DNA from: Candidatus Omnitrophota bacterium
GTDB lineage: Bacteria; Omnitrophota; Gorgyraeia; 2-01-FULL-45-10
DNA: 64,000 nt
Assembly: GCA_023818895.1 (NCBI GenBank)
Contig: JAMWCX010000001.1
Span: 75,539-139,538, forward strand
Direction of reading: 5' to 3'
In this document: positions 5,789 through 25,156 of the stretch, piece after piece
Layout: each line of letters opens with the position of its first letter
How positions within the stretch are numbered: the first letter of the stretch is position 1
Translations under genes and position numbers: made by a program
The notes under the pieces: model-generated
What the model saw: only the letters and a program-made list of their open reading frames with translations
The model's database searches: none
What the model was told of the DNA's origin: nothing

Positions 5789-5824
5789 GATGTTAAAAGT
5801 TAGAAATAAAAAAGCCATTTTTAC

Positions 5825-7623: not shown

Positions 7624-7644
7624 GTTAGCATAGTATCGCAAAAA

Positions 7645-7675: not shown

Positions 7676-7760
7676 TAGTACAGATAACGGCTTGAATAGT
7701 ATTGACTTTTAGCCCGGCCGTAAATATAATCTAACACATAAATAATGTAAGGAGGCGAAT

Positions 7761-8093: not shown

Positions 8094-8094
8094 G

Positions 8095-8871: not shown

Positions 8872-8874
8872 TAA

Positions 8875-9315: not shown

Positions 9316-10109
9316 GCCAAATAAGCAACCAGGCGGTAGTAAGCAAGAAGGCAAGGATCGGCGAGAGGGTTGAGATCGGCCCATTTGCCATAATCGAGGA
9401 TGATGTTGAAATAGGCGCCGGCGTCAAGATCTGGCCGCATGCGTACATAGCGGGCGGCACATCCATAGGGGAGGGTTCCCAGATACATATGGGCGCTGTG
9501 GTGGGTCATCTTCCGCAAGACTTGGCGTTCAAAAATACGAAGACATTTTGCAAGATAGGAAAAAATACAGTTATACGTGAGTACGCCACTATTCACAGAG
9601 GAACCGAGGAGGGTTCTGAGACCACGGTGGGGGACAACTGTTATCTAATGGCCGTTTCTCACGTCGGACATAACTGCCATATAGGCAATAATGTCATACT
9701 CGCCAACTGTGCCCTTTTGGCCGGCCATGTTACTGTCGGCGACCACGTATTCATATCCGGCAATGTGGTTGTTCATCAGTTCTGCCGCATCGGTACCGCC
9801 GCTATCATAGGTGGATTTACCGGCATAAATAAAGATGTGCCGCCGTATATGCTTGTGAGGGGGCCTTCTGTTGTGCGCGGCGTGAACCTTGTAGGATTGA
9901 GGAGGCTTAAATTCTCGAGAGAGGCGATAAAGACGATAAACGAAGCTTACCGGCTTTTGTACAAGTCAGATATGAACACCGCCCAGGCGATAGAGGCGAT
10001 GAGGAAGCTGGGCCCGTCCAAAGAGATAGATAACCTGATCAATTTTATTCAGGGATCCAAGAGAGGCATCTGCAAGTATAAGTATAGTGATGATGAATAT
10101 TTCGAATAG
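9312..10109 (+). CDS. lpxA: UDP-N-acetylglucosamine O-acyltransferase (first step of lipid A synthesis)
   Basis: The protein consists of left-handed beta-helix hexapeptide repeats, with the LpxA-specific segments MAVSHVGHNCHIGNNVILAN and VRGVNLVGLRRLKFSREAIK. Confidence 0.85.
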   Translation: MSQISNQAVVSKKARIGERVEIGPFAIIEDDVEIGAGVKIWPHAYIAGGTSIGEGSQIHMGAVVGHLPQDLAFKNTKTFCKIGKNTVIREYATIHRGTEEGSETTVGDNCYLMAVSHVGHNCHIGNNVILANCALLAGHVTVGDHVFISGNVVVHQFCRIGTAAIIGGFTGINKDVPPYMLVRGPSVVRGVNLVGLRRLKFSREAIKTINEAYRLLYKSDMNTAQAIEAMRKLGPSKEIDNLINFIQGSKRGICKYKYSDDEYFE

Positions 10110-10111
10110 CG

Positions 10112-11212
10112 ATGCCGTCCGATAAGGCAAAATCCTACTGGCGACACAAGTACTCCGTCACCTTTGTTTCCCTGGCCGTCTCTTTTGTGTTTTTATCCGT
10201 TTTTCAACTCTCTGGCTCGTCCGCCGCTATTAGAGCGAGTGCCTCCAAATTTACTGAGAATTTTTACATCACCTGCTTGATATATATTTCCGTATTCAGC
10301 CTGACATACGGCGCGGTCATGTTTCCGCTTGATTTTTATGAGGGTTACGCTATTGAACGCCGTTTCGGGCTTTCTAATCAATCGCTCGCATCTTGGCTTA
10401 AGGACGAGGCGAAAAAGAGCGCCATTTCATTCGCGTTTTTCCTTTTTCTTATCGAGGCTTTTTACGCTATAGCCAGGTGTTTTCCGGCGACATGGACCCT
10501 GGCGGCCTCCCTATTTTGGATAACACTTTCAGTGGTACTTGCCAAGGTGTTCCCCCTGGCCATAATACCCATATTTTACCGATATAGCCCGTTGTCCAGC
10601 CAGGACCTTAAGAAAAAAGTCCTCCATCTTGCCGATAAGTTCGGCATAAAAGTGCTGGATGTTTTTGAGATAGATTTTAGCACCAAGACGAAGAAGTCAA
10701 ACGCCGCTGTAGTGGGTTGGGGAGGCTCCCGAAGAGTTATACTTGCCGATAATCTGGTTAATGAATTCTCGACCGAGGAGGCAGGGGTGGTAGTAGCGCA
10801 TGAGATGGCGCACCATAAGCGCGGGCACATGTGGAAACTTATTGCCTTTAACGCCATCTCCATTTTTTTGTTCTTCATTCTTCTCGATAAGTTGTTGCTG
10901 CCGCTTGCCAGCCGGCATAACCCGAACGCTTTTTTAGACCTATCATTTTTCCCGCTTGTATATATGTTCTTTATGGCATATGAATTCTTAATGATGCCAA
11001 TCTATAATTGGTTTTCCCGCCGCCTTGAGACGGAGGCCGATATTATGGCATTGCGGGCCACCGGCTCTCGAGATGCGTTTATTTCGATGATGCAGAAGTT
11101 AGCGAGCAAGAACCTGGCGGATACCAGTCCCAACCCCATAATAGAGTGGCTTTTGTACAGCCACCCCCCGATTTCCAAAAGGATAGAACTTGCCAAAAAC
11201 CTCCGCCTTTAA
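10112..11212 (+). CDS. M48-family zinc metalloprotease (Ste24/HtpX-like), integral membrane
   Basis: Contains the HEXXH motif in VVAHEMAHHKRGHMWK and multiple transmembrane helices. Confidence 0.75.
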   Translation: MPSDKAKSYWRHKYSVTFVSLAVSFVFLSVFQLSGSSAAIRASASKFTENFYITCLIYISVFSLTYGAVMFPLDFYEGYAIERRFGLSNQSLASWLKDEAKKSAISFAFFLFLIEAFYAIARCFPATWTLAASLFWITLSVVLAKVFPLAIIPIFYRYSPLSSQDLKKKVLHLADKFGIKVLDVFEIDFSTKTKKSNAAVVGWGGSRRVILADNLVNEFSTEEAGVVVAHEMAHHKRGHMWKLIAFNAISIFLFFILLDKLLLPLASRHNPNAFLDLSFFPLVYMFFMAYEFLMMPIYNWFSRRLETEADIMALRATGSRDAFISMMQKLASKNLADTSPNPIIEWLLYSHPPISKRIELAKNLRL

Positions 11213-11870
11213 GGATGCCGTGATGAGGAAGATAGGAAGATCCGATCTTAAAAATGTTTACGATAAGCTTCTGAGACATTTCGGTCCGCAGGGTTGGTGG
11301 CCCGGAGACACCCGCTTTGAAATAATAGTGGGGGCGATACTTACACAGAACACAGCATGGAAGAACGTTGAAAAGGCAATATCTAATCTTAAGGCCGCTG
11401 GCGCGCTTGATTCTCCATCGGCTATGATGAAATTGGGGCAGCGCCGCATAGCGCGCCTTATAAGACCCGCCGGTTACTATAATGTCAAGGCAAAAAGACT
11501 TTGTAACTTCCTTCGTTTTCTCAGATCCAGACACGATTTTAGCCTCGATAACCTTAGCCGTTTGAAAACACCTTTATTGAGACAGGAGCTTCTGTCGGTT
11601 AACGGCATCGGTCCGGAGACATGCGATTCAATATTGTTATACGCCTTCAGAAGGCCTATATTTGTCGTGGATGCCTATACCAAAAGAATATTCTCGCGCC
11701 ATGGATTGTTTGAAACAGGATCTTCTTACGATCATATACAGAAGATATTCATGGATAGCCTCCTGCCCGATCATATCTTATACAACGAGTACCATGCCCT
11801 TATAGTAAGGTTGGGTAAAGAACATTGCCGAAAGTGCCCAAATTGTGCGGAATGCCCTCTTAGCGGGTGA
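11190..11870 (+). CDS. Endonuclease III-related HhH-GPD DNA glycosylase-like protein
   Basis: Contains the HhH-GPD core (LTQNTAWKNVEKAI...GIGPETCDSILLYAF) and a C-terminal Cys cluster (CRKCPNCAEC). It overlaps the end of the M48 gene by 23 nt. Confidence 0.7.
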   Translation: MPKTSAFKDAVMRKIGRSDLKNVYDKLLRHFGPQGWWPGDTRFEIIVGAILTQNTAWKNVEKAISNLKAAGALDSPSAMMKLGQRRIARLIRPAGYYNVKAKRLCNFLRFLRSRHDFSLDNLSRLKTPLLRQELLSVNGIGPETCDSILLYAFRRPIFVVDAYTKRIFSRHGLFETGSSYDHIQKIFMDSLLPDHILYNEYHALIVRLGKEHCRKCPNCAECPLSG

Positions 11871-11928
11871 AATGTCTTGCAAATATATTTTTCTGATAAT
11901 ATAATATTGAAAAAATGCGAGGTGAATT

Positions 11929-12348
11929 ATGCCAGTAAAAAATAAAAAGAAAATAGCTAAGAAAGCGGCAAGGAAGAAAGTAAAAAAGACGGCAAAGCCG
12001 CCACGGCGCAAGGTTGCAAAAAGATCTAAAGCTAAAATAAAGATTTCCAGGGCAGTTACCGCTAAAAAAGCCATGAAAATATCGCAAGGGCCGGAGGCGT
12101 CGCTTGAGAAGATAGGCGAGGTGACGCACTATTTCCCGCATGTGAGAGCTGCCGCCGTAATGCTGCTTAAGGATGGTTTGAAGGTCGGAGATGAGATATA
12201 TCTGAAAGGCCACACTACCGACTTCAAGGAAAAAGTAGAGTCGATGCAGCTTGATCATGTGCCCATTCAGGAAGGTAAAAAGGGGCAGGAGATAGGCCTC
12301 CTTGTGAAAGAGCGGGTAAGAATTGGCGATAGTGTTTACAGGTTATAA
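11929..12348 (+). CDS. Hypothetical protein with a Lys-rich histone-H1-like N-terminus and a C-terminal small beta-barrel resembling EF-Tu domain 2
   Basis: The first ~50 residues are about 50% Lys/Arg/Ala (KKKIAKKAARKKVKKTAKPPRRKVAKRSKAK). The C-terminus reads GLKVGDEIYLKGHTTDF...GQEIGLLV..RVRIGDSVY. Confidence 0.4.
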   Translation: MPVKNKKKIAKKAARKKVKKTAKPPRRKVAKRSKAKIKISRAVTAKKAMKISQGPEASLEKIGEVTHYFPHVRAAAVMLLKDGLKVGDEIYLKGHTTDFKEKVESMQLDHVPIQEGKKGQEIGLLVKERVRIGDSVYRL

Positions 12349-12351
12349 GAT

Positions 12352-12609
12352 ATGAACATATTTCAGAGAAGTATCTTGCTTGGCCTCGGCCTTGATTGCA
12401 AAGACGGTCATGTGCGAGTTACCAAGGGAAAGAATTTTCGGCTTTTCGGCGGTTCGGAAGAGACGCACGAGATGATGCAGGAGAAAGCTATAAAATTCAA
12501 CGAGCAGCTGGATAAGCGCCACAAGACCCTTGACGACATAAACGAGCAGGAATTTCTTGAGATAGCCTCTTCCATAGGCCTTAAAGTGCCAAAGGAAAAG
12601 AAGCCCTGA
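12352..12609 (+). CDS. Hypothetical small protein
   Basis: 85-aa ORF filling the gap before efp. No family was recognised. Confidence 0.3.
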   Translation: MNIFQRSILLGLGLDCKDGHVRVTKGKNFRLFGGSEETHEMMQEKAIKFNEQLDKRHKTLDDINEQEFLEIASSIGLKVPKEKKP

Positions 12610-12628
12610 CCAAAAGGATGTCTTCGTC

Positions 12629-13189
12629 ATGATACAGGGAACCGACGTCCATGAGGGTATGCTCTTGCTTATAGACGGTAAAGTCTATAAGGTCATATCA
12701 GCGGCATTGAGAGGTTCGGCACAGGCCCATAAGATCATGCATCTGGGCCTGCGCTCCATTCCCGACGGACACTTTATCGAAAAGACCTATAATCCGGGCG
12801 AGAAGGTTGAGCAGATATTGCCCGATCGCTACCAGATGCAGTACCTTTATACAGACGGCAAGGACTATTATTTTATGAATACTGAAAGTTTTGAACAGTT
12901 TGCCGTCCCCGCCCAGATCGTCGGAAACATAGGCTTATATCTTAAGGAAAACGCCACCATACAGGTGGAATTTTACAAAGGCAATCCCATTAACATAGTA
13001 TTTCCCAAGACGGTAGAGCTTAAGGTGGTTTCCTGCCCGCCCGGTCTTCACGAGGGCACTGATACAACTTTCAAGGAAGCTGTGCTTGAGAATGGCATCA
13101 AAACCCTTGTGCCGCAGTTTATAAAAGAAGGCGATACCGTAAAGCTGGATGTGGAGAGCGGAAAATATCTGGACAGAATAAAGAAGTAG
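12629..13189 (+). CDS. efp: Elongation factor P-family protein
   Basis: 186 aa with three-domain EF-P similarity throughout (YLYTDGKDYYFMNTESFEQF..., VELKVVSCPPGLHEGTDTTFKEAVLENG...). The canonical KPGKG loop is replaced by LRGSAQ (see findings). Confidence 0.75.
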   Translation: MIQGTDVHEGMLLLIDGKVYKVISAALRGSAQAHKIMHLGLRSIPDGHFIEKTYNPGEKVEQILPDRYQMQYLYTDGKDYYFMNTESFEQFAVPAQIVGNIGLYLKENATIQVEFYKGNPINIVFPKTVELKVVSCPPGLHEGTDTTFKEAVLENGIKTLVPQFIKEGDTVKLDVESGKYLDRIKK

Positions 13190-13242
13190 CAGAGAATCTT
13201 AAGATTTGTTTGGAATTTTATATTTAAGGAGGTGATTACTAG

Positions 13243-13425
13243 ATGGCGAATATAAAGATAGATGAATCGACATGCACAGGGTGCGGCCTTTGCGCGGCCA
13301 ATTGTCCTGACGTATTCGAGGTGGGTGATGATGGCCTGGCGCATGTGATATCGGATAAATGCACCAGCTGTGATATCAAGGAGATAGCAGATCAGTGCCC
13401 AGTAAATGCTATAACGGTCCAGTGA
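13243..13425 (+). CDS. Small ferredoxin-like 4Fe-4S protein
   Basis: Contains CTGCGLCAANCP plus a second motif, CTSCD...CP. Confidence 0.6.
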   Translation: MANIKIDESTCTGCGLCAANCPDVFEVGDDGLAHVISDKCTSCDIKEIADQCPVNAITVQ

Positions 13426-13426
13426 C

Positions 13427-13999
13427 ATGAAAGTAATAGGGATAAGCGCCAGTCCGCGCCAGGACGGAAACAGTGATGAGCTTTTGAATCGCGCCCTAGA
13501 GGGCGCTGCCTCAGCAGGGGCAGAAGTAAAGAAGATAATCCTTAACGAGCTTAAATTTGGACCTTGCCAGGAATGCGGCGGGTGCGACAGGACTGGTTTT
13601 TGCGTGATCCACGACGGGCTGGAACCGGTGTATGCGCAGCTTGACGACGCCGACGCCATTGTGATAGCCTCGCCGGTCTTTTTCGCAAGCGTGAGCGCTC
13701 AGCTCAAGATGATGATCGACCGCTTTCAGTGCCGCTGGGTAGCCAAGTATATTCTCGGTAAAGGCGGCCGCTCCGGCAGGAGGCGGAAAGGGGCGCTTCT
13801 TCTGGCTTCCGGTTCTTACAAGAAGGAGTTTTTCGAGAATTCCAGGGCCGTGGTAAAGGCGTTCTTCGCGACGCTGGATGCCGAATATTCAGGAGAACTT
13901 TTCTGCGGCGGCCTGGAAAAGAAGGGCGACGCGGCAAAATACAAGGAATATCCCAACAGAGCGTATGAGATAGGCAGAGAGCTTGTCATAAATGGATAA
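13427..13999 (+). CDS. NADPH-dependent FMN reductase / iron-sulfur flavoprotein (Isf-like)
   Basis: Flavodoxin-like start (MKVIGISASPRQDGNS), a compact Cys cluster (CQECGGCDRTGFC), and the segment IVIASPVFFASVS. It overlaps the ferredoxin stop by 1 nt. Confidence 0.6.
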   Translation: MKVIGISASPRQDGNSDELLNRALEGAASAGAEVKKIILNELKFGPCQECGGCDRTGFCVIHDGLEPVYAQLDDADAIVIASPVFFASVSAQLKMMIDRFQCRWVAKYILGKGGRSGRRRKGALLLASGSYKKEFFENSRAVVKAFFATLDAEYSGELFCGGLEKKGDAAKYKEYPNRAYEIGRELVING

Positions 14000-14762
14000 T
14001 AGGTATAAAAATACAGCGATCGAGGCCGCTTTAAAAAGCGGCGTTTTTATTAATAATTCGGTCGGAAGGGTTGGGAAGGTTTCATACAAGGGCAGGGATA
14101 ATATTGTCACCGATATCGATAAGGCTTCCGAAAAGATGATTATCGGAATAATAAAATCCAAATTCCCCGATCATTCGATACTTGCCGAAGAAGGCTCGTC
14201 CGACGCTACGGAGTCGCCCTATAAATGGATAATAGACCCTCTTGACGGTACGACGAATTTTGCGCATGGCTTTCCGTTTTTCTGCGTGTCGATTGCGCTT
14301 GAAAAGTTCGGAAAAGTTGTGCTCGGTGTGGTATACGACCCTGTCAGGAGGGAGCTTTTTTGCGCCGAATCTGGTAAGGGTGCTTATCTTAATAACCGCA
14401 GGATAAGCGTCTCTATGACGCGGCGCCTCTCCCAAAGTTTTCTTGCCACAGGCTTTTCGTACGGTAAGGCCAGAAAAGATAAAAACGTTCGGAATTTTAA
14501 AAATCTTTTGATGCGATCACTCGCCATCCGCAGGGCTGGTTCAGCGGCGCTGGACTTATGCTATGTTGCTTGCGGAAGGTTTGACGGTTTTTGGGAGATG
14601 TATCTCCAGCCGTGGGATAGCGCGGCCGGCGCTATTATCGTTGAAGAAGCCGATGGAATGGCAACTAAGTTTGACGGTTCTAAATTCTTTCCATACCATA
14701 AAAATATTCTCGCCACTAATGGACTAATTCATCGTCAGATGTCTCGTCTTCTTAGATACTAA
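13992..14762 (+). CDS. suhB: Inositol monophosphatase family protein
   Basis: Contains the IMPase motifs WIIDPLDGTTNFAHGFPFF and WDSAAG. Confidence 0.8.
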   Translation: MDNRYKNTAIEAALKSGVFINNSVGRVGKVSYKGRDNIVTDIDKASEKMIIGIIKSKFPDHSILAEEGSSDATESPYKWIIDPLDGTTNFAHGFPFFCVSIALEKFGKVVLGVVYDPVRRELFCAESGKGAYLNNRRISVSMTRRLSQSFLATGFSYGKARKDKNVRNFKNLLMRSLAIRRAGSAALDLCYVACGRFDGFWEMYLQPWDSAAGAIIVEEADGMATKFDGSKFFPYHKNILATNGLIHRQMSRLLRY

Positions 14763-14819
14763 GGATATCAAATATATCATTATATTTTGTTAGGATATAA
14801 AATAGTTAAATATTTACTA

Positions 14820-14848
14820 TTGACACTCTTAACGATTTGATATATACT
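14820..14848 (+). promoter_or_regulatory. Sigma-70-type promoter candidate: TTGACA, a 17-nt spacer, then TATACT
   Basis: Same architecture as the promoters at 5825 and 23843. It lies in an AT-rich gap upstream of the ORF at 14879. Confidence 0.3.
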
Positions 14849-14878
14849 TTAACCTGTTGAAATTAGAAAAAGAAAGCT

Positions 14879-15232
14879 ATGAAATATAAAACTATTATTA
14901 AAATAACATCTGAGGCGCGAGATAAGAACGAGGCGATTGAGATCGTCGACGATTATCTTGCGGGAAACATACGGACTGGTGTTGATATGAAGTGTGCTAC
15001 CAAGCCTGAGTGTAATTCCGTTAAGATAACCTGTGCGATAGCGATTTGTCTTGTGATTTTATGGGCGATAGTCGTGCCTACCCAATTGAATACCACGCAA
15101 AGCCAAACTCAAAGTTCTCCGGCTTTCAGCGCAGTACAACCGCCGCTTAACACAGAGAGGGCGAACCCTGATTTCAAGAAGCGATGGGAAGAGCGCCGAA
15201 TCAGAGAGACTCCTCGTAATATCAGGGGATAG
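14879..15232 (+). CDS. Hypothetical single-pass membrane protein
   Basis: 117-aa ORF with one central hydrophobic helix. No family was recognised. Confidence 0.3.
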   Translation: MKYKTIIKITSEARDKNEAIEIVDDYLAGNIRTGVDMKCATKPECNSVKITCAIAICLVILWAIVVPTQLNTTQSQTQSSPAFSAVQPPLNTERANPDFKKRWEERRIRETPRNIRG

Positions 15233-15335
15233 AAAGCGCAATCCGAATAAATCATCCGCATCTTATTTGCCTTGCAAATTCCAGCCTTTGTTGTATACTT
15301 AGATTCGAAGATTAAGTTAAAAAGGAGAATGGCGT

Positions 15336-15806
15336 ATGAGGATATTTATTTACATTGTAAGTATGGTGTTGGCGCTGTCGTTTGGTCTGCAACCAGTATT
15401 CGCAGGATCTTATGACGATGATGATCAGGATAACGGTGCAGGATCGGTTTTGGGAGGTACTCTAATGGGCGGGCTTCTTGGAGGCGGCCTCGGCGCCGCG
15501 ATCGGAAGCGCCTCAGGCAATGCCGGCAAGGGAGCTCTTATAGGAGCCGGCATTGGAGCGGTAGGCGGCTCGCTTATGGGCGCCAGTCAGGCTGATCAGA
15601 AGAAGAGAGAAAAACAGTACCGCCAGCAAGAAGAGATGTATGAACAGCAGCAGTACGTGCAGCAACAGCAGTATGTGCGGCAAGCACCAGAGTCTTCTTA
15701 CGCGGTAGAACAGCTGCCGATAGAGAATGCAAAGATCAAAAAGCGAGTAATACGCCAGTACGATGAGCAGGGCAACGTTATATCGGAGAAAGAAGTAGCG
15801 CAGTAA
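15336..15806 (+). CDS. Secreted glycine-zipper protein with a Gln/Tyr-rich region (paralog of the ORF at 18748..19461)
   Basis: Signal peptide, a glycine-zipper segment (GGLLGGGLGAAIGSASGNAGKGALIGAGIGAVGGSLMGA), a QQYVQQQQYV region, and a C-terminal ...YDEQGNVISEKEV motif. Confidence 0.5.
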   Translation: MRIFIYIVSMVLALSFGLQPVFAGSYDDDDQDNGAGSVLGGTLMGGLLGGGLGAAIGSASGNAGKGALIGAGIGAVGGSLMGASQADQKKREKQYRQQEEMYEQQQYVQQQQYVRQAPESSYAVEQLPIENAKIKKRVIRQYDEQGNVISEKEVAQ

Positions 15807-15840
15807 TAATTCATTAAAGCTATATTCAAGTATATGCATA

Positions 15841-15889
15841 GGCGGCTTTTTAACAACGGCAGTTAAATGAGCCGCCTGTTTTATTTTTG
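15841..15889 (+). terminator. Rho-independent terminator
   Basis: The hairpin GGCGGCT...AGCCGCC is followed by TGTTTTATTTTTG. Confidence 0.5.
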
Positions 15890-15906
15890 TTTATGATGGG
15901 ACATAT

Positions 15907-17388
15907 ATGATCGTAAAGAAAGAAAACTCTTTTTTAATGGCCTATCTTGAAGATAGCTCAAATGTCAAAGGGGGATATGCCGATGAGGTTGTGATCCCTG
16001 AGAACATTGACGAGTTATGCGCTTTCTTGAAGGACGCGAACGCAAAAAAAATGCCTGTTACGATATCTGGAGGGGGGACTGGAACAACCGGATCGCGAAT
16101 ACCGTTCGGCGGGGCAGTGATATCGCTTGAAAGATTCAATAGGATACTTGCCATAGACTCTGACCGCAAGAGCGCATTAGTTCAGAGTGGCGTGATGGTA
16201 GACGACCTGAAGAAAGCCTGTGATGAAAAAAAATTATTCTATACTTCCCATCCCACTGAAAATACCGCGTCAGTCGGAGGGACGATCGCCACAAACGCTT
16301 CAGGGGCAAGGTCCTTTAAATATGGGGCAACTCGAAGGTATGTCAGGACCCTTAAGATGGTTCTCGCAAACGGAGAGATCCTGGAAATAAGAAGAAATCG
16401 GTCCGTTCTTTCGCGTAAAGATTCCCGGATAATCCTACCGGGCGAGAGTGCCATCACCGTGCCTATTCCTACTTACAGAATGCCGGAAATCAAGACCTCG
16501 GCGGGCTATTACGCGAAGGATGGCATGGATCCAATCGATCTTTTCATCGGCCAGGAGGGTACGCTCTCAGTCATAGTCGAGATGGAGATAGGTCTTGTCG
16601 ATAAGCCTTCTAAAATACTAAGCGCGTTTGTATTTTTTGAGACGGAGGAAGATGCCTGGCGCTTTGCCTGTGAGGCAAGAGACATTTCGCGAAGCGGCAG
16701 ATCGTTGATAGACGCTTTATCAATCGAATATTTTGACCATAATTCTCTTAGGCTCCTGCGGGCCCGAGACCGCGATGTCCCTGAAAAGTTCGCAAGCGCC
16801 ATATTCTTCGAACAGGAGGTGCGTGCCGGCAATAGAGAAGAAGAGGTTCTTGACGCATGGATCGAGCTTATCTTGAAGTACAGTCCATCATTGGACAATA
16901 CCTGGGTCGCTATGAATGAAAAGACTGCCGAAAAGTTCAGTAACTTGCGCCACGCCATCCCTGAATCCGTCAACGATATCATACGGTCAAGAGGTTTTCA
17001 GAAGATCAGCACGGATATCGCTGTCCCCGACGTTGCCAATATCGAGATGATGGGGTTTTATTCTAAGACGCTTAAGAATGGAGGCCTTGACTACCTAGTA
17101 TTTGGCCATATAGGAGAAAACCATGTCCACGTGAATATCCTGCCTAAAAATGAGAGGGAGAACTTAAGGGCGAAGGAGATGGCTTTGGAGCTCGTCAGAA
17201 AAGGAATTGCACTTGGCGGGACCGTATCAGCGGAGCATGGTATCGGAAAGATAAAACACAAGTATCTTGAGGAGATGTACGGTAAAAACGGCATAATTGA
17301 GATGGCGCGGATAAAGAAGGCGTTTGACCCTAATTGCATTCTTGGGCTTGACAACATATTCCCAAGGGAGGTCTTATACTTGGCATGA
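15907..17388 (+). CDS. FAD-linked oxidase (GlcD / D-lactate dehydrogenase-like D-2-hydroxyacid dehydrogenase)
   Basis: An FAD-binding PCMH domain (VTISGGGTGTTGSRIPFGGAVISLERFNRILAIDSD...LVQSGV) and a C-terminal FAD-oxidase domain. Confidence 0.75.
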   Translation: MIVKKENSFLMAYLEDSSNVKGGYADEVVIPENIDELCAFLKDANAKKMPVTISGGGTGTTGSRIPFGGAVISLERFNRILAIDSDRKSALVQSGVMVDDLKKACDEKKLFYTSHPTENTASVGGTIATNASGARSFKYGATRRYVRTLKMVLANGEILEIRRNRSVLSRKDSRIILPGESAITVPIPTYRMPEIKTSAGYYAKDGMDPIDLFIGQEGTLSVIVEMEIGLVDKPSKILSAFVFFETEEDAWRFACEARDISRSGRSLIDALSIEYFDHNSLRLLRARDRDVPEKFASAIFFEQEVRAGNREEEVLDAWIELILKYSPSLDNTWVAMNEKTAEKFSNLRHAIPESVNDIIRSRGFQKISTDIAVPDVANIEMMGFYSKTLKNGGLDYLVFGHIGENHVHVNILPKNERENLRAKEMALELVRKGIALGGTVSAEHGIGKIKHKYLEEMYGKNGIIEMARIKKAFDPNCILGLDNIFPREVLYLA

Positions 17389-18662
17389 ACATAGCCATAG
17401 CGTATGGTAGAGGTCGGATAAAATTTTCTTTGCCTAAGCGCAGGGTGCTCGGTGTCCTTAAGAATAAGGTCGCTAGAGGCGATAGTGTAAGAGATTTGAC
17501 AGTTACGGCGCTTCGCCGCCCTTTAAATGGCGTCTCTTTTGATGATCTTATGGTTGGCAAAAACAATATTTTGGTGGCAGTGCCTGATAATACCAGAAGC
17601 GCTCATTTGAAAGATATCCTGCCGGTATTATTGAGACGTATAGAATCAAAAGGTCGCGCGATTACTATTGTGGCGGCCACAGGTCTGCACAAGTCTCACG
17701 ACGGGCCAGAACTCCGTAGTCTTGTCGGCAAAGCCATATTCAAAAGTTACAGGGTAAAAAGCCACACTCAGGATGAGAGATCGCTTATTGATTTTGGCCG
17801 CACCTCGAAGGGCGTTCCGGTGGTATTGAATAGGATGGTCAGAGACTGCGATCTTATAATATCTGTTGGAGTGATTGAGCCTCATCTCTACGCCGGCTAC
17901 AGCGGCGGCGCCAAGACCGTGGCGATAGGGCTGGCCGGCAAGGTGACTATAGACCATACGCACGGAACCAGATTTCTGGACGATAGGAGCACTAGGATAG
18001 CCTCCATCGATGGCAATTTGTTTCAGGATACATTATGGGAGATTGCGGCTAAGACGCCTCTTGGCTTTTCTGTGAACGTCGTAAATGACCCCGATGGCAC
18101 GGCAGCGGCTGTATTTGCTGGAAGCCCCAGAGATGTTTTCGAAAAAGGGGTGAAACTCGCGAAAAAGATTTTTGAAGTGACAGTAGTAAAAGAGGGCGGC
18201 ATAGTTATATGCGGCATCGGATACCCAAAAGATATAAACCTTTATCAATCTTCCAGGGCTATAAATTACGTCGCTAATGTGGACAGGCCCGTTATCAGTA
18301 AGGGCGGCGTTATTGTAGTGGCGGCTGAACTTAGGGACGGTATAGGGTTAAGCCAAGCCGAGAAACTTTTCTACAAGAACTTGTGCGTAATGCGCTCGCC
18401 ACGGCAGCTTGTTGAAGAGGTCCGCAGGGAAGGATGTGTGGCAGGCAAGCACAGGGCTTATATGTTGGCCGCGCCGCTTATGGATTATAAAGTGATATTT
18501 GTAACCGCTTCTTCAAAGAAAGGGTTTATGAGGAACCTTCCATTCGAGACTTTTTCTAGCATACGAAAGGCGATTCTAAGAGCGGAGGATATAGTTGGGC
18601 GCGACGCTGGCGTATATGTTATACCTAAGGCGCTGGCGACTGTCGCTATAAGGAGAATTTAG
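17385..18662 (+). CDS. larA: LarA-family nickel-pincer-nucleotide-dependent alpha-hydroxyacid racemase/epimerase homolog (DUF2088)
   Basis: The sequence aligns by eye to Lactobacillus plantarum LarA across the N-terminal domain: VPDNTRS vs SDHTRP, IVAATGLHK vs ILVATGFHR, and ISVGVIEPHLYAGYSGGAKT vs ISEGFIESHFFAGFSGGRKS. The cofactor-binding Lys is conserved. There is an ATGA start/stop overlap with the upstream oxidase gene. Confidence 0.75.
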   Translation: MNIAIAYGRGRIKFSLPKRRVLGVLKNKVARGDSVRDLTVTALRRPLNGVSFDDLMVGKNNILVAVPDNTRSAHLKDILPVLLRRIESKGRAITIVAATGLHKSHDGPELRSLVGKAIFKSYRVKSHTQDERSLIDFGRTSKGVPVVLNRMVRDCDLIISVGVIEPHLYAGYSGGAKTVAIGLAGKVTIDHTHGTRFLDDRSTRIASIDGNLFQDTLWEIAAKTPLGFSVNVVNDPDGTAAAVFAGSPRDVFEKGVKLAKKIFEVTVVKEGGIVICGIGYPKDINLYQSSRAINYVANVDRPVISKGGVIVVAAELRDGIGLSQAEKLFYKNLCVMRSPRQLVEEVRREGCVAGKHRAYMLAAPLMDYKVIFVTASSKKGFMRNLPFETFSSIRKAILRAEDIVGRDAGVYVIPKALATVAIRRI

Positions 18663-18747
18663 ATAAGATGTGGTTTAATTCTTTCTTGAAATTTAAGGAA
18701 CTTTAATGTATATTTAAGTTGTCTAATATCCACGGGGAGGATAGATT

Positions 18748-19461
18748 ATGAAAGTAAAAATTATTTTATCGACTTTACTTATTTTTGTGTGCGCTGTCAG
18801 TATCTTCATTTTCCAGTTCGCTTATTGTCAAGACGATGATTCCACAAGAAATATACTCAAGCAGGGGCTTCTAGGCGCAGGTACAGGCGCCATAGCGGCC
18901 AGCGCTTCTGGCGGCAAGGCAGGGCAAGGAGCTCTAATAGGGGCTGGCACAAATGTCATTGGCGGCGCCTTACTCGATGCGATAACAGGCCCTTCAAGCT
19001 CTTCCAGAAGTAGCGCTCCCGCTTATCGTTATTATGACGATTCTGGCGGATATTACTATGAGGAAGAGCCGCCCCAAGAGTCCAGTACCTCAAAGATAAT
19101 AAAACAAGGACTGTTAGGCGCAGGTACCGGCGCTCTTGCCTCAGGCATGTCGGGAGGTGACGCCGGTAAGGGGGCTCTAATAGGGGCTGGCACAAATGTC
19201 ATTGGCGGCGCCTTGCTTGACGCTATTACTCAGCCTTCCCGACCCAAGAGGGTCTATTACAGGCCTCCTGCGCAGCAATATCAACCCCAATATCAACCTC
19301 AATATCAGCAGCCTTATCAGCAACAATATCAGCCGCAATATCAGCCGCAAAATGTCCAGATAAAGGAAGAGACTGTTGGCTCTGGCGATGGACGCAAGAA
19401 GATAATAAAGAAATACGATTCTAGCGGAAAACTTATTTCAGAGGAAGAGATATATTATTAG
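18748..19461 (+). CDS. Secreted glycine-zipper protein with two internal repeats and a QYQPQ tandem-repeat region (paralog of the ORF at 15336..15806)
   Basis: Signal peptide, two copies of ILKQGLLGAGTGA..GALIGAGTNVIGGALLDAIT, a QYQPQYQPQYQQPYQQQYQPQYQPQ stretch, and a C-terminal KKYDSSGKLISEEEIYY motif. Confidence 0.5.
   Translation: MKVKIILSTLLIFVCAVSIFIFQFAYCQDDDSTRNILKQGLLGAGTGAIAASASGGKAGQGALIGAGTNVIGGALLDAITGPSSSSRSSAPAYRYYDDSGGYYYEEEPPQESSTSKIIKQGLLGAGTGALASGMSGGDAGKGALIGAGTNVIGGALLDAITQPSRPKRVYYRPPAQQYQPQYQPQYQQPYQQQYQPQYQPQNVQIKEETVGSGDGRKKIIKKYDSSGKLISEEEIYY
18865..19230 (+). repeat. Intragenic direct repeat, with a 41-nt perfect copy at 18931..18971 and 19174..19214
   Basis: The string gctctaataggggctggcacaaatgtcattggcggcgcctt occurs twice, inside two roughly 130-nt diverged repeat units that encode the glycine-zipper module. 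Confidence 0.6.
19272..19350 (+). repeat. Imperfect tandem CAATATCAGCC(N) repeat encoding (QYQPQ)n
   Basis: Visible 15-nt periodicity: caatatcaacccc / aatatcaacctc / aatatcagcagcct / tatcagcaacaa / tatcagccgcaa / tatcagccgcaa. Confidence 0.5.
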
Positions 19462-19488
19462 GGCCGACATAGAAAAGAGTCGTTGACC

Positions 19489-19534
19489 AAAACCTCCGTT
19501 ATGATACTTCATATCAGAAGGAGGTTTTGTTTTG
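19489..19534 (+). terminator. Putative terminator hairpin (AAAACCTCC...GGAGGTTTT followed by GTTTTG)
   Basis: A 9-bp stem with a long loop and a T-rich tail lies between the Gln-rich gene and the nuclease gene. The 3' arm doubles as the ribosome-binding site of the nuclease gene. Confidence 0.35.
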
Positions 19535-19550
19535 TCGCAGGGATGGCGTG

Positions 19551-20093
19551 ATGAGACGTAAAAAGATTGGGTATATACAGGCAGTGGCGCTTATCGTAGT
19601 ATCCGCCTTATACATGGGCGTTAAGTATCTGCCTTTAGGTGGGTGCGCAGCCGCGAGGGAAGAGTTGCTATATGTCCTGAAGGCGGTGGACGGTGACACG
19701 CTGAAACTTTCCGATGGCAGGCGTGTTCGCCTTATCGGGGTGGATACGCCGGAAGTACATTACAGCGATAAGCTTGTAAGGGATGCCCGCAAGAGCCGTA
19801 AGGATATGAAGCAAATACAATTGCTCGGTCGGAAGGCCTCTGATTTTACCAGGAAGTTGTGCGAGAACCGGAAGGTCCGGCTCGAGTTTGACGTGACTAA
19901 GTACGATCGTTACGGTCGGTTGCTTGCCTACGTATATCTTGAAGATGGCACGTTCGTCAATGCTAAGATTATAGAGGAAGGTTATGGTCAAGTCATGACC
20001 GTACCGCCTAACGTCAAATATACTGATTATTTCCTTAGGCTTGAAAGACAAGCGCGTGAAAACCGTAAGGGGTTGTGGGCTGAAAATCCATGA
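19551..20093 (+). CDS. Staphylococcal (micrococcal) nuclease-like thermonuclease, probably a lipoprotein or secreted protein
   Basis: SNase fold motifs VDGDTLKLSDGRRVRLIGVDTPE and YDRYGRLLAYVYLEDGTFVNAKIIEEGYG. The N-terminus (MRRKKIGYIQAVALIVVSALYMG...LGGC) looks like a signal or lipobox sequence. The ORF-track start at 19527 is an upstream TTG; the ATG at 19551 is preferred. Confidence 0.7.
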   Translation: MRRKKIGYIQAVALIVVSALYMGVKYLPLGGCAAAREELLYVLKAVDGDTLKLSDGRRVRLIGVDTPEVHYSDKLVRDARKSRKDMKQIQLLGRKASDFTRKLCENRKVRLEFDVTKYDRYGRLLAYVYLEDGTFVNAKIIEEGYGQVMTVPPNVKYTDYFLRLERQARENRKGLWAENP

Positions 20094-20138
20094 AACCTTG
20101 CTTAGGCGCTCTGGTAGCCGAGATATGAGAATAGAGGC

Positions 20139-21059
20139 ATGGAAGATATAAAAATACTCAAGAACATAGAATTGGCGAATCCGGTTATGATAGCCGGATG
20201 GCCCGGCATGGGCACGGTGGCGCTCGGAGTCGTTGACTACCTGCGCAGAAAATTGGGCGCGACGAAATTTGCCGAAATAGAACTCGACCCTCTTGCCACT
20301 ATCGATTCTGTCCTTGTCGAAGACGGAGTGGCCACTATCCCGCCAATCCCAAAGAATATATTTTATTATGTGAGAAATCCAGATATTATAATACTTGAAG
20401 GGGAGGCCCAGCTTTCCGGTCAGGCAGGTTTGGCGCTTTTGGGCAAGGTGCTCGATGTCGCAGAAAGATTTAAGGTCAGAACCATATATACAGGAGCGGC
20501 ATTTCCAATGCCTATAAGCCATAGAGAGGACCCAGAAGTCTACGGAGCCGTCAATAGAAGAGACCTTCTAGATGTACTTCAGAAATTCGACATAAAGGCT
20601 ATGGAGGGTGGCCACATATCGGGAATGAATGGTCTGATTCTCGGTCTGGCCAGGCAGAGAAATATAGACGCCGTATGCCTTTTGGCCACAATGCCTCAAT
20701 ATGCCATAAGCCTGCCGAATCCCAAGGCGTCCGCTGCTATAATAGATGTTATGCAGAAGATGTTGAGTTTTGTCGTAAGTCTTGAGGAGTTGTACGAGTA
20801 CATAAAGGATATGGACGAGAAGATGGCGGTAATAGAGGAAAAGGTGAAGGACGTTCTTACCATAGAAAACGAAAAGGAAGCCCAGCCCCCTGCGGACAAG
20901 AAGGTTCCCGGCTACATAACCGATAAGATTGAAAGGCTTTTTAAGGAAGCCGAAAAGGATAAATCTAAAGCTATTATACTCAAAAGAGAGCTCGACAGGT
21001 GGGACCTCTATAAAATATACGAAGACCGTTTTCTGGATCTTTTCAAGGATAGCCAATAA
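20139..21059 (+). CDS. PAC2-family (COG1938-like) protein with a Lys/Glu-rich coiled-coil C-terminal extension
   Basis: The N-terminal segment ANPVMIAGWPGMGTVA resembles the GxPGxGxVG signature of PAC2 proteins. This assignment is from memory and is moderate to weak. Confidence 0.4.
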   Translation: MEDIKILKNIELANPVMIAGWPGMGTVALGVVDYLRRKLGATKFAEIELDPLATIDSVLVEDGVATIPPIPKNIFYYVRNPDIIILEGEAQLSGQAGLALLGKVLDVAERFKVRTIYTGAAFPMPISHREDPEVYGAVNRRDLLDVLQKFDIKAMEGGHISGMNGLILGLARQRNIDAVCLLATMPQYAISLPNPKASAAIIDVMQKMLSFVVSLEELYEYIKDMDEKMAVIEEKVKDVLTIENEKEAQPPADKKVPGYITDKIERLFKEAEKDKSKAIILKRELDRWDLYKIYEDRFLDLFKDSQ

Positions 21060-22318
21060 TGAGGAAAAATAACTTCCTTAAAAAATCGCTTTTTACTTTG
21101 GTTGTAATAATTGTAATAGTTGCAACCGCTGTTTTCGTATACAGGTATCAGATAATCCAGTACTCTACCGAGGCGGTAGTGCGCAAGCTTCTTCCTGACT
21201 ATATAAGCGTGGATAAGATTTCTTTTAATTTCAAGGATAGAAAGCTATCGCTAGGCGGTCTGTGCATAAAAAATCCGCCGGGTTTTCATGGTAAGTATCT
21301 ATTAGAGGTGGAGAACCTATCTTGCGGATACAATATGCGAGGCAGGCATATCCTTGATGGAATAGAGATAACCGAGCCCATCTTCAGAGGGGCAGTTCTC
21401 GATATAGAACGGCTGGCGGACGGAAGCATTAATTTACAAAAGATGCAACAGGTTGTTGAAGGCCCAGCCAAGAATAGCGGTGCTGTCAAGGCTCAAGCCG
21501 CGGTGGCAGATGAAAAGAAGGGGAGGGGAGGGGGTGCCGGCGCGGCGCCACTTGAGGCGACGGGGAAGAAGATTCAGGATGTTGTTAAATTGCCGGAAAA
21601 ATTCTTGGCCCGGAATTGCAAAGCGCTTTTTACAGACCATATGGTACGACCGGCTCCTTACAGGCTTACTTTTGAGAACATTGACGCAACCCTTACGCTT
21701 AATTTCAACAGTTACTATACAGGGCTTCTTCGTCTTTCATCAACAGGCAGCGGCGATCTTAACGGCAGGAAGAATGAGAATATTAAATGGAACATAGTCT
21801 GGGATCCTACTACTGCGAGACTCACTATGTCTAACAGGTTCGATGTATCCGGTGTGGATATAAAGGCCTTTGAGCCATATTATGAAAGGTATTCTCCTTT
21901 TGTATTCAACCAAGGGAAATTCTCCGGTGTCCTAATATTCGATTTCGATAATGGCAACATAGGCTCATCCAACGAGATTCGTTTGTCGCGATTATCTTTT
22001 TCAATAAAGAAGGGGCAGGAAAACAGTCAGTTTTTGGAGGTCACGGTTCCGGATTTGGTTAGATACTTTAGCTCTTCAACCGGTGAGGTCATATTTGATT
22101 TTAAGATCAAAGGGGACATGGCAGATCCTAAGTTTCACCTCGGCCCAATATCCAAACGGGCGATGACGGCCATGGCCGTCGATAAAGTATCGGCGGTCAT
22201 AGCCGAAGTCGCTAAGGCCCAGCAGCAAGGCTCTGCCGCGCCGGGGGGCGAAAGCGAATATGACAAGGCCAAAGCCATTGTCGACGCATTCAAAGGCCTT
22301 GTGGACAAGAAGAAATAA
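21059..22318 (+). CDS. Membrane-anchored hypothetical protein (AsmA/DUF748-like architecture)
   Basis: An N-terminal transmembrane helix followed by a 400-aa beta-rich periplasmic region. The family call is weak. Confidence 0.3.
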   Translation: MRKNNFLKKSLFTLVVIIVIVATAVFVYRYQIIQYSTEAVVRKLLPDYISVDKISFNFKDRKLSLGGLCIKNPPGFHGKYLLEVENLSCGYNMRGRHILDGIEITEPIFRGAVLDIERLADGSINLQKMQQVVEGPAKNSGAVKAQAAVADEKKGRGGGAGAAPLEATGKKIQDVVKLPEKFLARNCKALFTDHMVRPAPYRLTFENIDATLTLNFNSYYTGLLRLSSTGSGDLNGRKNENIKWNIVWDPTTARLTMSNRFDVSGVDIKAFEPYYERYSPFVFNQGKFSGVLIFDFDNGNIGSSNEIRLSRLSFSIKKGQENSQFLEVTVPDLVRYFSSSTGEVIFDFKIKGDMADPKFHLGPISKRAMTAMAVDKVSAVIAEVAKAQQQGSAAPGGESEYDKAKAIVDAFKGLVDKKK

Positions 22319-22320
22319 GC

Positions 22321-23547
22321 GTGGAAAGACTTACCAGGAATTTTGCGTGGCTTGCGGCTGCCAATATTATAGGCAGCCTTTTTACCGCCCTTCTTTTTAT
22401 ATACCTCGCAAGGACGCTCGGTGCCGAGGCGTTCGGCCATTTTTCATATGCCACCAGCCTTGTCTTATACATTTATAACTTCATGGACCTGGGGCTTTCG
22501 ACCTACGGTATCCGTGAAGTAGCCAAAAATCACGAAGCTGTTTCCGACTACGTATCAAACATAATCTCCTTTAAGATAGCCGTCGCATTCGTATTGTTCA
22601 TAGTGCTTGGCATAATAAATGTTTTTTGCAGCCACTCCTTACTGATGAAGCTGCTGCTGGCCGAGTCTAGCCTTATGCTTTTTGTTTCAGCGCTCGCAAC
22701 GGAGTGGGCTTTTCAGGGTCTCGAACGTATGTATATGGTCTTTATATCATTCTCGTTTACTCCGCTTATCCAGCTCTTGGCCAGCCTCGTACTTGTTAGA
22801 GGACCGCAGGATCTAATGAGAGCGCCTCTAATAATATTCTTCGGCACGCTTCCAGTAATATCCATATTTCTTAAGATTCTTAAGTTCCGGCTAAGATTCG
22901 GCATTATTCACATGAAGACCCTCAAAGGATATATGGCAAGCTCGTTAGTAATATGGGCCATCTCTATGTTCACGCAGGTCTATAACGGCTTGGACATTGT
23001 GATCATGGGGTTTTTTCGCAAGGCCGAGGAGGTCGGCTGTTTTACGGTGGCGCGTCGTATAGTAGGAGGATTTTCGCTTCTTCTGGTCTTTTTGGCGAAC
23101 GCCCTTCTTCCGCGTCTATCCGCGACATTCTCAAGCGATCCGGTGGAATTCAGGCGGGCCACTACCAGGTTTCTGAGATTCGCTGTGCTGGTTGTAACCT
23201 TCGTGTTCGTTCCAGTTATAATATTCGGCAGAGAAATAATTACCTTAACCGTAGGAAGTCAGTATTTGGCGGCAGGCACGTCTCTTAAATTGATGGTCAT
23301 GGCGCTTACCCTCGTTGTATTCAATATTCCATATTCCACGGCTCTCATAGCCAGTTCTTTTGAGCGCGAGGTCCTTAAGCAGGCCTTTGCGAGCGCCTGC
23401 CTTAATATAATTTTAAATTTCCTAATTGTCCCGAAATATGGTATGATAGGCGCTTCCATATCGTTTTGCGCAGCAGAAGGGTTGGCGCTTATCTGGGTCT
23501 TATGGGCGTATAATAATAAGATAGGGTTTTACCAGAAAGGTTGTTAA
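22321..23547 (+). CDS. Polysaccharide biosynthesis protein / oligosaccharide flippase (Wzx/MOP superfamily); GTG start
   Basis: 408 aa, highly hydrophobic with about 12 predicted transmembrane helices. The N-terminus (LTRNFAWLAAANIIGSLFTALLFIYLAR) is typical of MOP flippases. Confidence 0.6.
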   Translation: MERLTRNFAWLAAANIIGSLFTALLFIYLARTLGAEAFGHFSYATSLVLYIYNFMDLGLSTYGIREVAKNHEAVSDYVSNIISFKIAVAFVLFIVLGIINVFCSHSLLMKLLLAESSLMLFVSALATEWAFQGLERMYMVFISFSFTPLIQLLASLVLVRGPQDLMRAPLIIFFGTLPVISIFLKILKFRLRFGIIHMKTLKGYMASSLVIWAISMFTQVYNGLDIVIMGFFRKAEEVGCFTVARRIVGGFSLLLVFLANALLPRLSATFSSDPVEFRRATTRFLRFAVLVVTFVFVPVIIFGREIITLTVGSQYLAAGTSLKLMVMALTLVVFNIPYSTALIASSFEREVLKQAFASACLNIILNFLIVPKYGMIGASISFCAAEGLALIWVLWAYNNKIGFYQKGC

Positions 23548-24766: not shown

Positions 24767-25156
24767 TTAGCGGCGTTTCTTAGACTTTGTTTTGGCCGGT
24801 TTTTTTAACTTCTTTTGACACTCTATGGAGTCTATTGCGAACTCTTTTTGGTATATGATATTCAGGGACGGACTATGGCATTCCGGGCATATAAACGTCG
24901 GCCTTTCCACCATAAACCCTTTTTTGCAGGCCTCGCATTTGATCCCTAACTTAAGCGGACTAACGTATAGTTTTACGGTCGAAAAAGGAGTGTTTTTTGC
25001 CATGGTCCTGAACGTTTCTTCAAGGGTTTTTGGAGTTACATGGCTTACAGGGCTCAATGCGACGCGCACCGATTTTATCTTGATTGCTTTTCCGGACTTT
25101 TTCGATTTTTCTGTAAGCGCTGCCAGTATCTCCTGGCAGAACTTAAAATCATGCAT
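24767..25156 (-). CDS. HypA/HybF-like zinc-finger nickel metallochaperone homolog
   Basis: The N-terminus MHDFKFCQEILAAL matches the HypA MHELSL.Q start. There are paired CxxC motifs (CEACKKG...CPEC), followed by a Lys-rich tail. Confidence 0.55.
   Translation of the reverse strand: MHDFKFCQEILAALTEKSKKSGKAIKIKSVRVALSPVSHVTPKTLEETFRTMAKNTPFSTVKLYVSPLKLGIKCEACKKGFMVERPTFICPECHSPSLNIIYQKEFAIDSIECQKKLKKPAKTKSKKRR

Follow-up and report, generated by a model that had tools for sequence, protein, structure and literature searches.

An overlapping gene pair for a predicted metal- and flavin-dependent D-2-hydroxyacid dehydrogenase and a putative Group 25 LarA-type racemase in Omnitrophota

The present analysis concerns a pair of overlapping genes in a 64-kb stretch of DNA from Candidatus Omnitrophota bacterium (assembly GCA_023818895.1, contig JAMWCX010000001.1, positions 75,539 to 139,538 of the forward strand), referred to below as the window at its full length of 64,000 nucleotides. 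The first gene encodes a predicted flavin adenine dinucleotide (FAD)-dependent D-2-hydroxyacid dehydrogenase or oxidase, and the second a putative racemase of the LarA superfamily. The two genes stand in the same order at most of the Omnitrophota loci that carry this type of racemase gene, and the active-site residues of both products are conserved. With moderate confidence, we read the pair as a co-transcribed, translationally coupled module in which the L-form of a 2-hydroxyacid would be racemised to the D-form and the D-form would then be oxidised to the 2-oxoacid.

The gene pair and its junction

Both open reading frames (ORFs) were found at exactly the coordinates given by the initial annotation, which had been made from the sequence alone, and their families were confirmed by Pfam. 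The elements of the pair are as follows.

15907-17388, + strand: dehydrogenase (oxidase) gene, 493 amino acids (aa)
17385-18662, + strand: racemase gene, 425 aa
17385-17388, + strand: stop/start overlap ATGA, with the racemase ATG (17385-17387) over the oxidase TGA (17386-17388)
17364-17371, + strand: Shine-Dalgarno-like AAGGGAGG within the 3' end of the oxidase gene, 13 nt ahead of the racemase ATG
15838-15895, + strand: terminator-like hairpin (15838-15879) followed by a U-rich tract

Direct reading of the junction gave ttggcATGAacata, in agreement with the annotated overlap of the oxidase stop and the larA start, and this arrangement is consistent with translational coupling. The Shine-Dalgarno-like element was also read directly, and a purine-rich GGAG/AGAG is present at the equivalent site in four other loci (L004, L091, L092 and L017). 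Although a 4-nt overlap by itself is common in compact genomes, the one described here goes beyond chance because it is conserved among orthologous loci.

The dehydrogenase gene lies directly 5' of the racemase gene in 14 of the 16 loci of the Omnitrophota H-R racemase clade that have upstream sequence (L001-L005, L007, L008, L010, L011, L013, L017, L069, L091 and L092). The junction is ATGA in eight sequences, namely the window and L004, L007, L011, L017, L069, L091 and L092; the others show an 11-nt overlap (L001), a gap of 1-9 nt (L003, L008 and L013) or, in one case, 216 nt. Among the compared junction loci, identity to the window proteins is 37-53% for the racemase and 45-64% for the oxidase, and the genes bordering the pair vary (fmt, patatin, response regulator, Maf, NUDIX and a TtcA-like gene).

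The hairpin and its U-tract stand between the upstream glycine-zipper lipoprotein gene and the oxidase start. Folding of the RNA from 15806 to 15910 gave -27.4 kcal/mol (z = -3.3), and none of 200 shuffled sequences was as stable, whereas a simple terminator scan did not flag the hairpin at 15838-15879. As only about 10 nt are left between the U-tract and the dehydrogenase ATG for a dedicated promoter, the pair may be expressed by read-through or from a promoter of an unrecognised type.

The putative racemase and its placement in Group 25

The product of 17385-18662 contains the domains Lar_N (PF09861, 1e-48) and LarA_C (PF21113, 2e-17), both above the Pfam gathering scores, and full-length matches were obtained with LarA 2yjg (3e-50, residues 2-420), L. 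plantarum LarA (7e-43) and Mar2 (8e-39). All of its NCBIfam scores stayed below the cut-offs, the best being LarAH6 (NF052593, 291 vs 500), followed by LarA (NF033504, 277 vs 460) and LarAH5 (NF052595, 274 vs 462). More than 100 orthologues were collected, at 41-57% identity, and essentially all named relatives of both proteins come from Omnitrophota metagenome-assembled genomes (MAGs). A partial protein with 100% identity is listed at NCBI under Candidatus Omnitrophica bacterium.

Reference sequences and signature positions were taken from Dataset S2 of Desguin et al. 2020 (PMC7583248) and aligned with 102 full-length racemase orthologues. In all 103 racemases, D68, R71, H102, H167, K177, H193, Y287 and Q288 are invariant; in LarA1 numbering, which also applies to the signature positions below, these are D72, R75, H108, H174, K184, H200, Y294 and Q295, comprising the catalytic histidines, the covalent cofactor tether (K184), the nickel ligand (H200) and the contacts to the carboxylate and hydroxyl groups. 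D72 and R75 count, with K184 and H200, among the residues that bind the cofactor. Equally invariant are L175, F220, S297, R298, G356, H358 and R359, with Y176 kept in 102 of 103, a set that is unlike any of groups 1-11. The motifs of helices alpha11 and alpha14 are as follows.

18243-18257, + strand: helix alpha11 motif Y287-Q288-S-S290-R291, corresponding to Y294-Q295-A-V297-K298 in LarA1
18444-18458, + strand: helix alpha14 specificity motif G354-K-H356-R357-A, with G, H and R invariant in 103/103

In helix alpha11, the carboxylate-binding Lys298 is replaced by Arg291, which is Arg throughout the clade (103/103), as against Lys in all 21 references of groups 1-11. The initial annotation had placed the protein in the LarA family and pointed to its catalytic His/Lys residues; the family membership stands and the residues are conserved at H108, H174, K184 and H200, but not at K298, and LarA-like specificity does not hold in view of this replacement and of the group placement described below.

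According to the specificity code of Urdiain-Arraiza et al. 2024 for positions 175/176/358/359, lactate racemases have F, F, W and E/Q, malate racemases x, x, H/Q and K, and 2-hydroxyglutarate racemases Y, F, H/Q and T. In the alignment with the Dataset S2 references, helix alpha14 reads G-x-H-K-A in malate racemases and D-Q-W-T/E/Q in lactate racemases. The window racemase has L, Y, H and R where a lactate racemase in the strict sense has F175, F176, W358 and T/E/Q359, and it departs from the malate racemases (H/Q358, K359 and Q297) with H358, R359 and S297.

When one genome per species was scanned, 80 racemase-type loci were obtained, and these were sorted by signature. The Omnitrophota H-R type accounted for 11 of these (13 of the 85 loci collected in all by then), a type reading S/T-R298 ... 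G-x-Q-R359 for 55, from Chloroflexota, Desulfobacterota, Armatimonadota, Thermoleophilia and others, and the canonical malate-racemase type for 14. The Q-R signature of the 55 loci is exactly that of Group 25, which comprises haloarchaea and Roseiflexus, is listed as "Unknown function" and has a helicase as its sole recurrent neighbour (PMC7583248).

The placement among LarA subgroups that the initial annotation had called for was made with neighbour-joining trees and led to Group 25. The best BLAST reference was the Group 25 protein Rcas_2707 (203 bits, 38%), ahead of LarA (161) and Mar2 (140), and the racemase fell outside groups 1-3 and outside the clades of groups 4-6. The R-R clade was monophyletic with 99% bootstrap support, or 83% once the Group 25 references Htur_2912, HFX_2777 and Rcas_2707 were added; the Omnitrophota subclade had 100%, with an ambiguous sister relation to the other groups. 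The Group 25 signature (Y176, F220, S/T297, R298, G356, Q358 and R359) is matched except for L175 and H358, each of which takes the place of Q. We consequently describe the product as a putative nickel-pincer nucleotide (NPN)-dependent 2-hydroxyacid racemase of the LarA superfamily, in an Omnitrophota subclade of Group 25. A literature search on Group 25 locus tags returned nothing, and clustering of the neighbours of the 55 non-Omnitrophota genes yielded regulators, a HAD hydrolase and spurious ORFs of high GC content, with no clue to the substrate.

In one Omnitrophota subclade (L007, L008, L010, L011, L013 and L017), the racemase lacks some 58 N-terminal residues, its start corresponding to about residue 59 of the window protein; the short racemases of L007, L011 and L017 nonetheless overlap the dehydrogenase stop as ATGA.

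A second Omnitrophota pair of a LarA homologue and a dehydrogenase was seen at L009 (3680-7713) and L012 (3135-5751). There, a Group-25-like LarA homologue is followed directly by a YdiJ-like dehydrogenase of 916 aa with FAD, 4Fe-4S and CCG domains. This YdiJ-type pairing is a further hint toward 2-hydroxyglutarate. The LarA paralogue has Leu for the catalytic His108 and Glu for the cofactor-tethering Lys184.

The dehydrogenase and its active site

The product of 15907-17388 contains FAD_binding_4 (8e-36) and FAD-oxidase_C (1e-34) domains in Pfam. Its closest solved relatives are LctD of Acetobacterium woodii (7qh2_C, 1e-42), 3pm9, glycolate oxidase, mouse LDHD and human D2HGDH, and it missed all NCBIfam equivalog cut-offs (GlcD models, 221 vs 568 and 113 vs 897). 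The orthologues listed are 57-67% identical, more conserved than the racemase.

Residues were mapped by HMMER alignments to mouse LDHD and human D2HGDH, with their roles taken from PMC10589216 and PMC7801405. Subsite A is complete: it comprises R348, aligned with R386/R347, the His/His/Glu metal triad and the catalytic His (R348, H401, H408, E443 and H444). Among 120 orthologues, R348, P352, K366, F399, H401, E404, H408, N410, E443 and H444 are invariant, and H406 is kept in 119. The metal-site motif and the residues of subsite B are as follows.

17101-17136, + strand: metal-site motif F-G-H401-I-G-E-N-H406-V-H408-V-N410, from the alignment to mouse LDHD (H398, H405 and I407)
P352: aligned with W351 (LDHD) and T390 (D2HGDH); Pro as in the yeast D2HGDHs DLD2 and DLD3
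S368: aligned with S365 (LDHD) and K401 (D2HGDH); Ser matches LDHD
F399: aligned with Y432 (D2HGDH)
N410: aligned with I407 (LDHD) and N443 (D2HGDH); D2HGDH-like

In the HMMER alignment H408 is a metal ligand and N410 a subsite-B residue. The motif, FGHIGExHxHxN against the canonical FGHxGDGNxH of the family, is unusual in adding the invariant Glu404 and the near-invariant His406 next to the metal site. The subsite B of D2HGDH (T390 or P, K401, Y432 and N443) is fitted only at the Asn and at the DLD2/3-type Pro, and the equivalent of the essential Lys401 is missing; an invariant K366 stands two residues before S368, in a loop with a 5-residue insertion, and its structural match to Lys401 is ambiguous. 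The hydrophobic subsite B of LDHD comprises W351, S365, I407 and V101; among the first three, which were mapped, only the Ser is matched, against P352 and N410.

Neither in the window nor in the orthologous loci were GlcE/GlcF or EtfA/EtfB genes found for the dehydrogenase, and no Fe-S partner is encoded nearby. We describe the product as a predicted stand-alone FAD- and metal-dependent D-2-hydroxyacid dehydrogenase/oxidase of the GlcD/LDHD/D2HGDH subfamily. The invariance of the active-site residues in 103 racemases and 120 dehydrogenases indicates that both genes are under purifying selection as enzymes.

Proposed pathway and alternative explanations

The two-step order of racemisation followed by oxidation of the D-enantiomer, which the initial annotation had suggested, fits the conserved coupling, the intact active sites and the precedent of the lct clusters; it is qualified by the facts that the pair is not obligate and that K298 is Arg. 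In the literature, COG0277 dehydrogenases are associated with LarAH groups 1, 4 and 6 (PMC7583248, Table S1). The structure of the genes, their domain families, the conservation of the active sites and of the coupling, and the variable presence of the racemase were observed directly; racemase activity, a substrate shared by both enzymes and the direction of the flux are what we infer from these features.

In the proposed mechanism, the nickel-pincer nucleotide of the racemase would be tethered on Lys177 and ligated by His193, and His102 and His167 would act as acid/base, turning the L-form of the 2-hydroxyacid used by the dehydrogenase into the D-form and back. The D-form would be held in the dehydrogenase by the Arg and by a divalent metal bound by His/His/Glu, and the C2 hydride would pass to FAD, giving the 2-oxoacid. 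The dehydrogenase would be the core enzyme, present phylum-wide in the same genomic slot, with the racemase as an accessory inserted directly behind it, which would let the cell consume or detoxify the L-enantiomer as well via the D-specific dehydrogenase. By analogy with lctF and lctD, the racemase probably makes the L-enantiomer available to a D-specific oxidation.

The weakest step of this model is the substrate. A tentative candidate is a 2-hydroxyacid that carries a further polar or anionic group, for instance malate or 2-hydroxyglutarate, and not lactate; it is proposed because of the malate-racemase-like G-x-H-R, Arg291, and the D2HGDH-like Asn410 and Pro352.

Several observations weigh against the proposed module. 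Two divergent racemases of the H-R type, L086 and L087, have no oxidase nearby; an FAD oxidase lies within 7 kb in only 5 of the 55 non-Omnitrophota loci of Group-25 type; and in all three long Omnitrophota contigs that were sampled via the dehydrogenase (L088-L090, 205-248 kb), the dehydrogenase gene occurs without a racemase gene. None of the 16 Omnitrophota racemase loci had a larB, larC or larE within 10 kb, and no transporter or regulator indicating a substrate was found near the pair. The replacement of Lys298 by Arg is conservative, but a defining residue of the superfamily differs. Neither Group 25 nor the subfamily of the window dehydrogenase contains a characterised enzyme. Finally, the dehydrogenase lacks the equivalents of Lys401 and Tyr432 of D2HGDH and the racemase lacks Gln297 of the malate racemases, which makes the dicarboxylate assignment weak.

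In L088, L089 and L090, the dehydrogenase gene is at 10001-11488 with no racemase gene within 10 kb, in the order FMN reductase, inositol monophosphatase, small ORFs, dehydrogenase, glycine-zipper lipoprotein, SNase, PAC2, DUF748 and Wzx. These racemase-less dehydrogenases are 59-63% identical to the window enzyme, compared with 45-64% for those followed by a racemase, and the active-site residues are the same in both. The same syntenic slot, the equal similarity and the identical active sites indicate that the dehydrogenase is a core gene and the racemase an accessory that has been repeatedly gained or lost.

The slot lies in a long synteny block conserved in Omnitrophota, which spans 5087-23547 in the window and recurs in L001, L003, L004 and L088-L092. 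Its order is PHP, alginate-export porin, DUF3047, HAMP, LpxA, HhH-GPD, FMN reductase and inositol monophosphatase, then glycine-zipper lipoprotein, SNase, PAC2 (proteasome-assembly-chaperone family), DUF748 and Wzx. In L090 and L092, a gene of the nitroreductase family lies just 3' of the block.

A rival explanation is that the pair is a minimal module for lactate utilisation, in which the racemase converts L- to D-lactate and the flavoenzyme oxidises D-lactate to pyruvate, as LctF and LctD do. This explanation has in its favour the lct cluster itself, the position of LctD as the best solved relative of the dehydrogenase, the match of its Ser368 to Ser365 of mouse LDHD, and the database names ("D-lactate dehydrogenase (cytochrome)" for the dehydrogenase orthologues at JGI and "nickel-dependent lactate racemase" for the racemase at NCBI). 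Genes for pyruvate handling are also nearby, with PPDK at 659-3508 in the window and POR in L001. However, the lactate-racemase signature is absent, the NF033504 score is below its cut-off, the racemase belongs to Group 25 and not to groups 1-3, Ile407 and Trp351 of LDHD correspond to Asn and Pro in the dehydrogenase, and neither a lactate permease nor EtfAB is encoded near the pair. We therefore regard a lactate module as unlikely.

Alternatively, the two enzymes may serve unrelated pathways, the racemase gene having merely landed behind a well-expressed core gene from which it borrows transcription and translation. The occurrence of the dehydrogenase alone in the same slot, with identical active-site residues, and of the racemase alone in L086, L087 and 50 of the 55 non-Omnitrophota loci would agree with this. 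Against it, adjacency with overlapping codons holds in 14 of 16 loci over deep divergence while the flanks change, both families act on 2-hydroxyacids, the same pairing of families arises independently in Firmicutes, and Omnitrophota have a second, distinct pairing of a LarA homologue with an FAD dehydrogenase in L009 and L012. An unrelated role is accordingly considered improbable.

Returning to the proposed module, we put forward with low confidence that Group 25, with Arg for both Lys298 and Lys359, might comprise racemases of a dicarboxylic or otherwise anionic 2-hydroxyacid new to the LarA repertoire, which in Omnitrophota would feed an undescribed subfamily of metal-flavin D-2-hydroxyacid dehydrogenases with an extra His and Glu at the metal site. 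In a bolder version, these small-celled and possibly host-dependent bacteria would lack larBCE and acquire the nickel-pincer cofactor from another source.

Cofactor genes and genomic context

The absence of larBCE from the window, reported by the initial annotation, held up: Pfam found no AIRC/LarB, DUF111/LarC or LarE among all ORFs of at least about 100 aa in the 64 kb, and a six-frame motif scan returned only the PP-loop of GMP synthase. Two kinds of PP-loop gene were considered as LarE candidates at other loci and rejected, namely the gene after the racemase in L092, which is TtcA-like and not LarE (26 vs 150 bits), and genes of 540-570 aa in six loci, which are NadE. A literature search for Lar genes in Omnitrophota returned nothing. 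In two MAGs of other lineages, LarC (206 + 158 bits) and LarE (300 bits) scored above the NCBIfam cut-offs at 6-7 kb from Group-25-type genes, which supports NPN dependence of the wider group.

L034, 10446-11621: LarC/LarE near Group-25-type LarA, Anaerolineae MAG
L083, 2513-3439: LarC/LarE near Group-25-type LarA, Thermoleophilia MAG

Since all cofactor-binding residues are invariant, the alignment argues that the racemase would use the cofactor. It is improbable that the LarA homologue is instead no racemase, either catalysing another hydride transfer owing to the Arg at position 298 or being an apoprotein in an organism unable to make the cofactor. The invariant K298R, the lack of an assigned activity in Group 25, the absence of larBCE from every Omnitrophota locus examined and the caution of Desguin et al., who count Lys298 as catalytic and state that groups without it "may not be capable" of inversion (PMC7583248), point that way. 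Against it, Arg can bind a carboxylate as Lys does, and K298 ligates the carboxylate when LarA_Ip is solved with lactate (PMC11851776). The catalytic His pair, the NPN-tethering Lys, the nickel-ligand His, R75, D72, Y294 and Q295 are invariant in 103 sequences, a conservation that would not persist in an apoprotein out of use, and LarC and LarE occur near Group-25-type genes in two other phyla.

The lone HypA-like gene about 6 kb from the pair, to which the initial annotation had drawn attention, is indeed present, but a connection with the racemase was rejected: the HypA gene stands alone, has no counterpart at the equivalent site in L003, L004, L091 and L092, and insertion of nickel into NPN is the job of LarC. 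It adjoins genes for a thioesterase and an M50 peptidase, and no hypB-F or hydrogenase genes were found in the window.

24767-25156, - strand: HypA-like nickel metallochaperone (PF01155, 9e-22)

At several Omnitrophota loci, the nicotinate branch of NAD synthesis is represented by genes at a distance of 2-4 kb from the racemase gene. NaAD is the precursor of the nickel-pincer cofactor; the proximity may be a coincidence. The NadE of L026 scored 714 bits, and the other copies were assigned by homology.

L007, 4673-6301: glutamine-dependent NadE
L008, 10822-12537: glutamine-dependent NadE
L010, 5046-6680: glutamine-dependent NadE
L011, 13231-14937: glutamine-dependent NadE
L017, 4288-5892: glutamine-dependent NadE
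L026, 2853-4484: glutamine-dependent NadE
L091, 5270-6337: nicotinate phosphoribosyltransferase

The window is otherwise of housekeeping character in Pfam, with PPDK, sigma-70, LpxA, EF-P, inositol monophosphatase, and purine and carbamoyl-phosphate genes. It also contains one very long ORF.

47086-57621, - strand: ORF of 3,511 aa with weak, sub-threshold-like SAM-methyltransferase matches at residues ~880-1000 and ~1695-1820 and no other Pfam match

Significance and comparison with known systems

The pair is a variant of a known two-enzyme scheme whose chemistry and pathway logic are already established, and both of its enzymes belong to uncharacterised subfamilies. What the pair chiefly contributes is a first hint from gene context at the function of LarAH Group 25, for which no informative context had been available, and the coupled dehydrogenase offers a means to read out the racemase. 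The occurrence of the dehydrogenase alone or together with the racemase is natural variation in an uncultivated phylum, and this variation could predict which Omnitrophota lineages handle both enantiomers.

Human D2HGDH (6LPN), mouse LDHD (8JDC) and E. coli GlcD have in common with the window dehydrogenase the two-domain VAO/PCMH fold families, the Arg for the C1-carboxylate, the His/His/Glu metal triad and the catalytic His. Asn443 of D2HGDH and the Pro of the D2HGDHs DLD2 and DLD3 correspond to Asn410 and Pro352, whereas Lys401 and Tyr432 are changed to Ser and Phe, and Trp351 and Ile407 of LDHD are absent. GlcD works with the partners GlcE and GlcF, unlike the window enzyme, with which none is encoded.

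The malate racemases Mar1/LarAH5 and Mar2/LarAH6 (PDB 6D6Z) share with the window racemase the alpha14 pattern G-x-H-(basic)-A, and LarAH6 is its best NCBIfam match. For the malate racemases, binding of the second carboxylate has been ascribed tentatively to the basic residue (PMC7583248, PMC11770544). This residue is Lys in these enzymes, with Gln at 297 and Lys at 298, where the window racemase has Arg, Ser and Arg. With Group 25 of Desguin et al. 2020, the racemase has the signature D72 R75 H108 H174 x Y176 K184 H200 F220 Y294 Q295 S/T297 R298 ... G356 x R359 in common; the Omnitrophota subclade differs in L175 and H358 (both not Q), forms its own fully supported branch and is the only part of Group 25 with a conserved functional neighbour.

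The nearest parallel is provided by the lct clusters of Acetobacterium woodii, Anaerobutyricum and Anaerostipes, in which an FAD D-dehydrogenase (lctD) likewise lies beside a LarA-type racemase (lctF). These clusters are catabolic islands with EtfAB (lctBC), a lactate permease, lctG and a LutR regulator, none of which was found in the window, and their racemase belongs to group 1, in contrast to Group 25 for the window racemase; the window pair has the dehydrogenase followed by the racemase with overlapping codons, inside a housekeeping synteny block. Strains without lctF, such as A. hadrus, use D-lactate only (PMC8914356). The two systems agree in combining a D-specific flavin dehydrogenase with a racemase that would admit the L-enantiomer, and in both the presence or absence of the racemase is natural.

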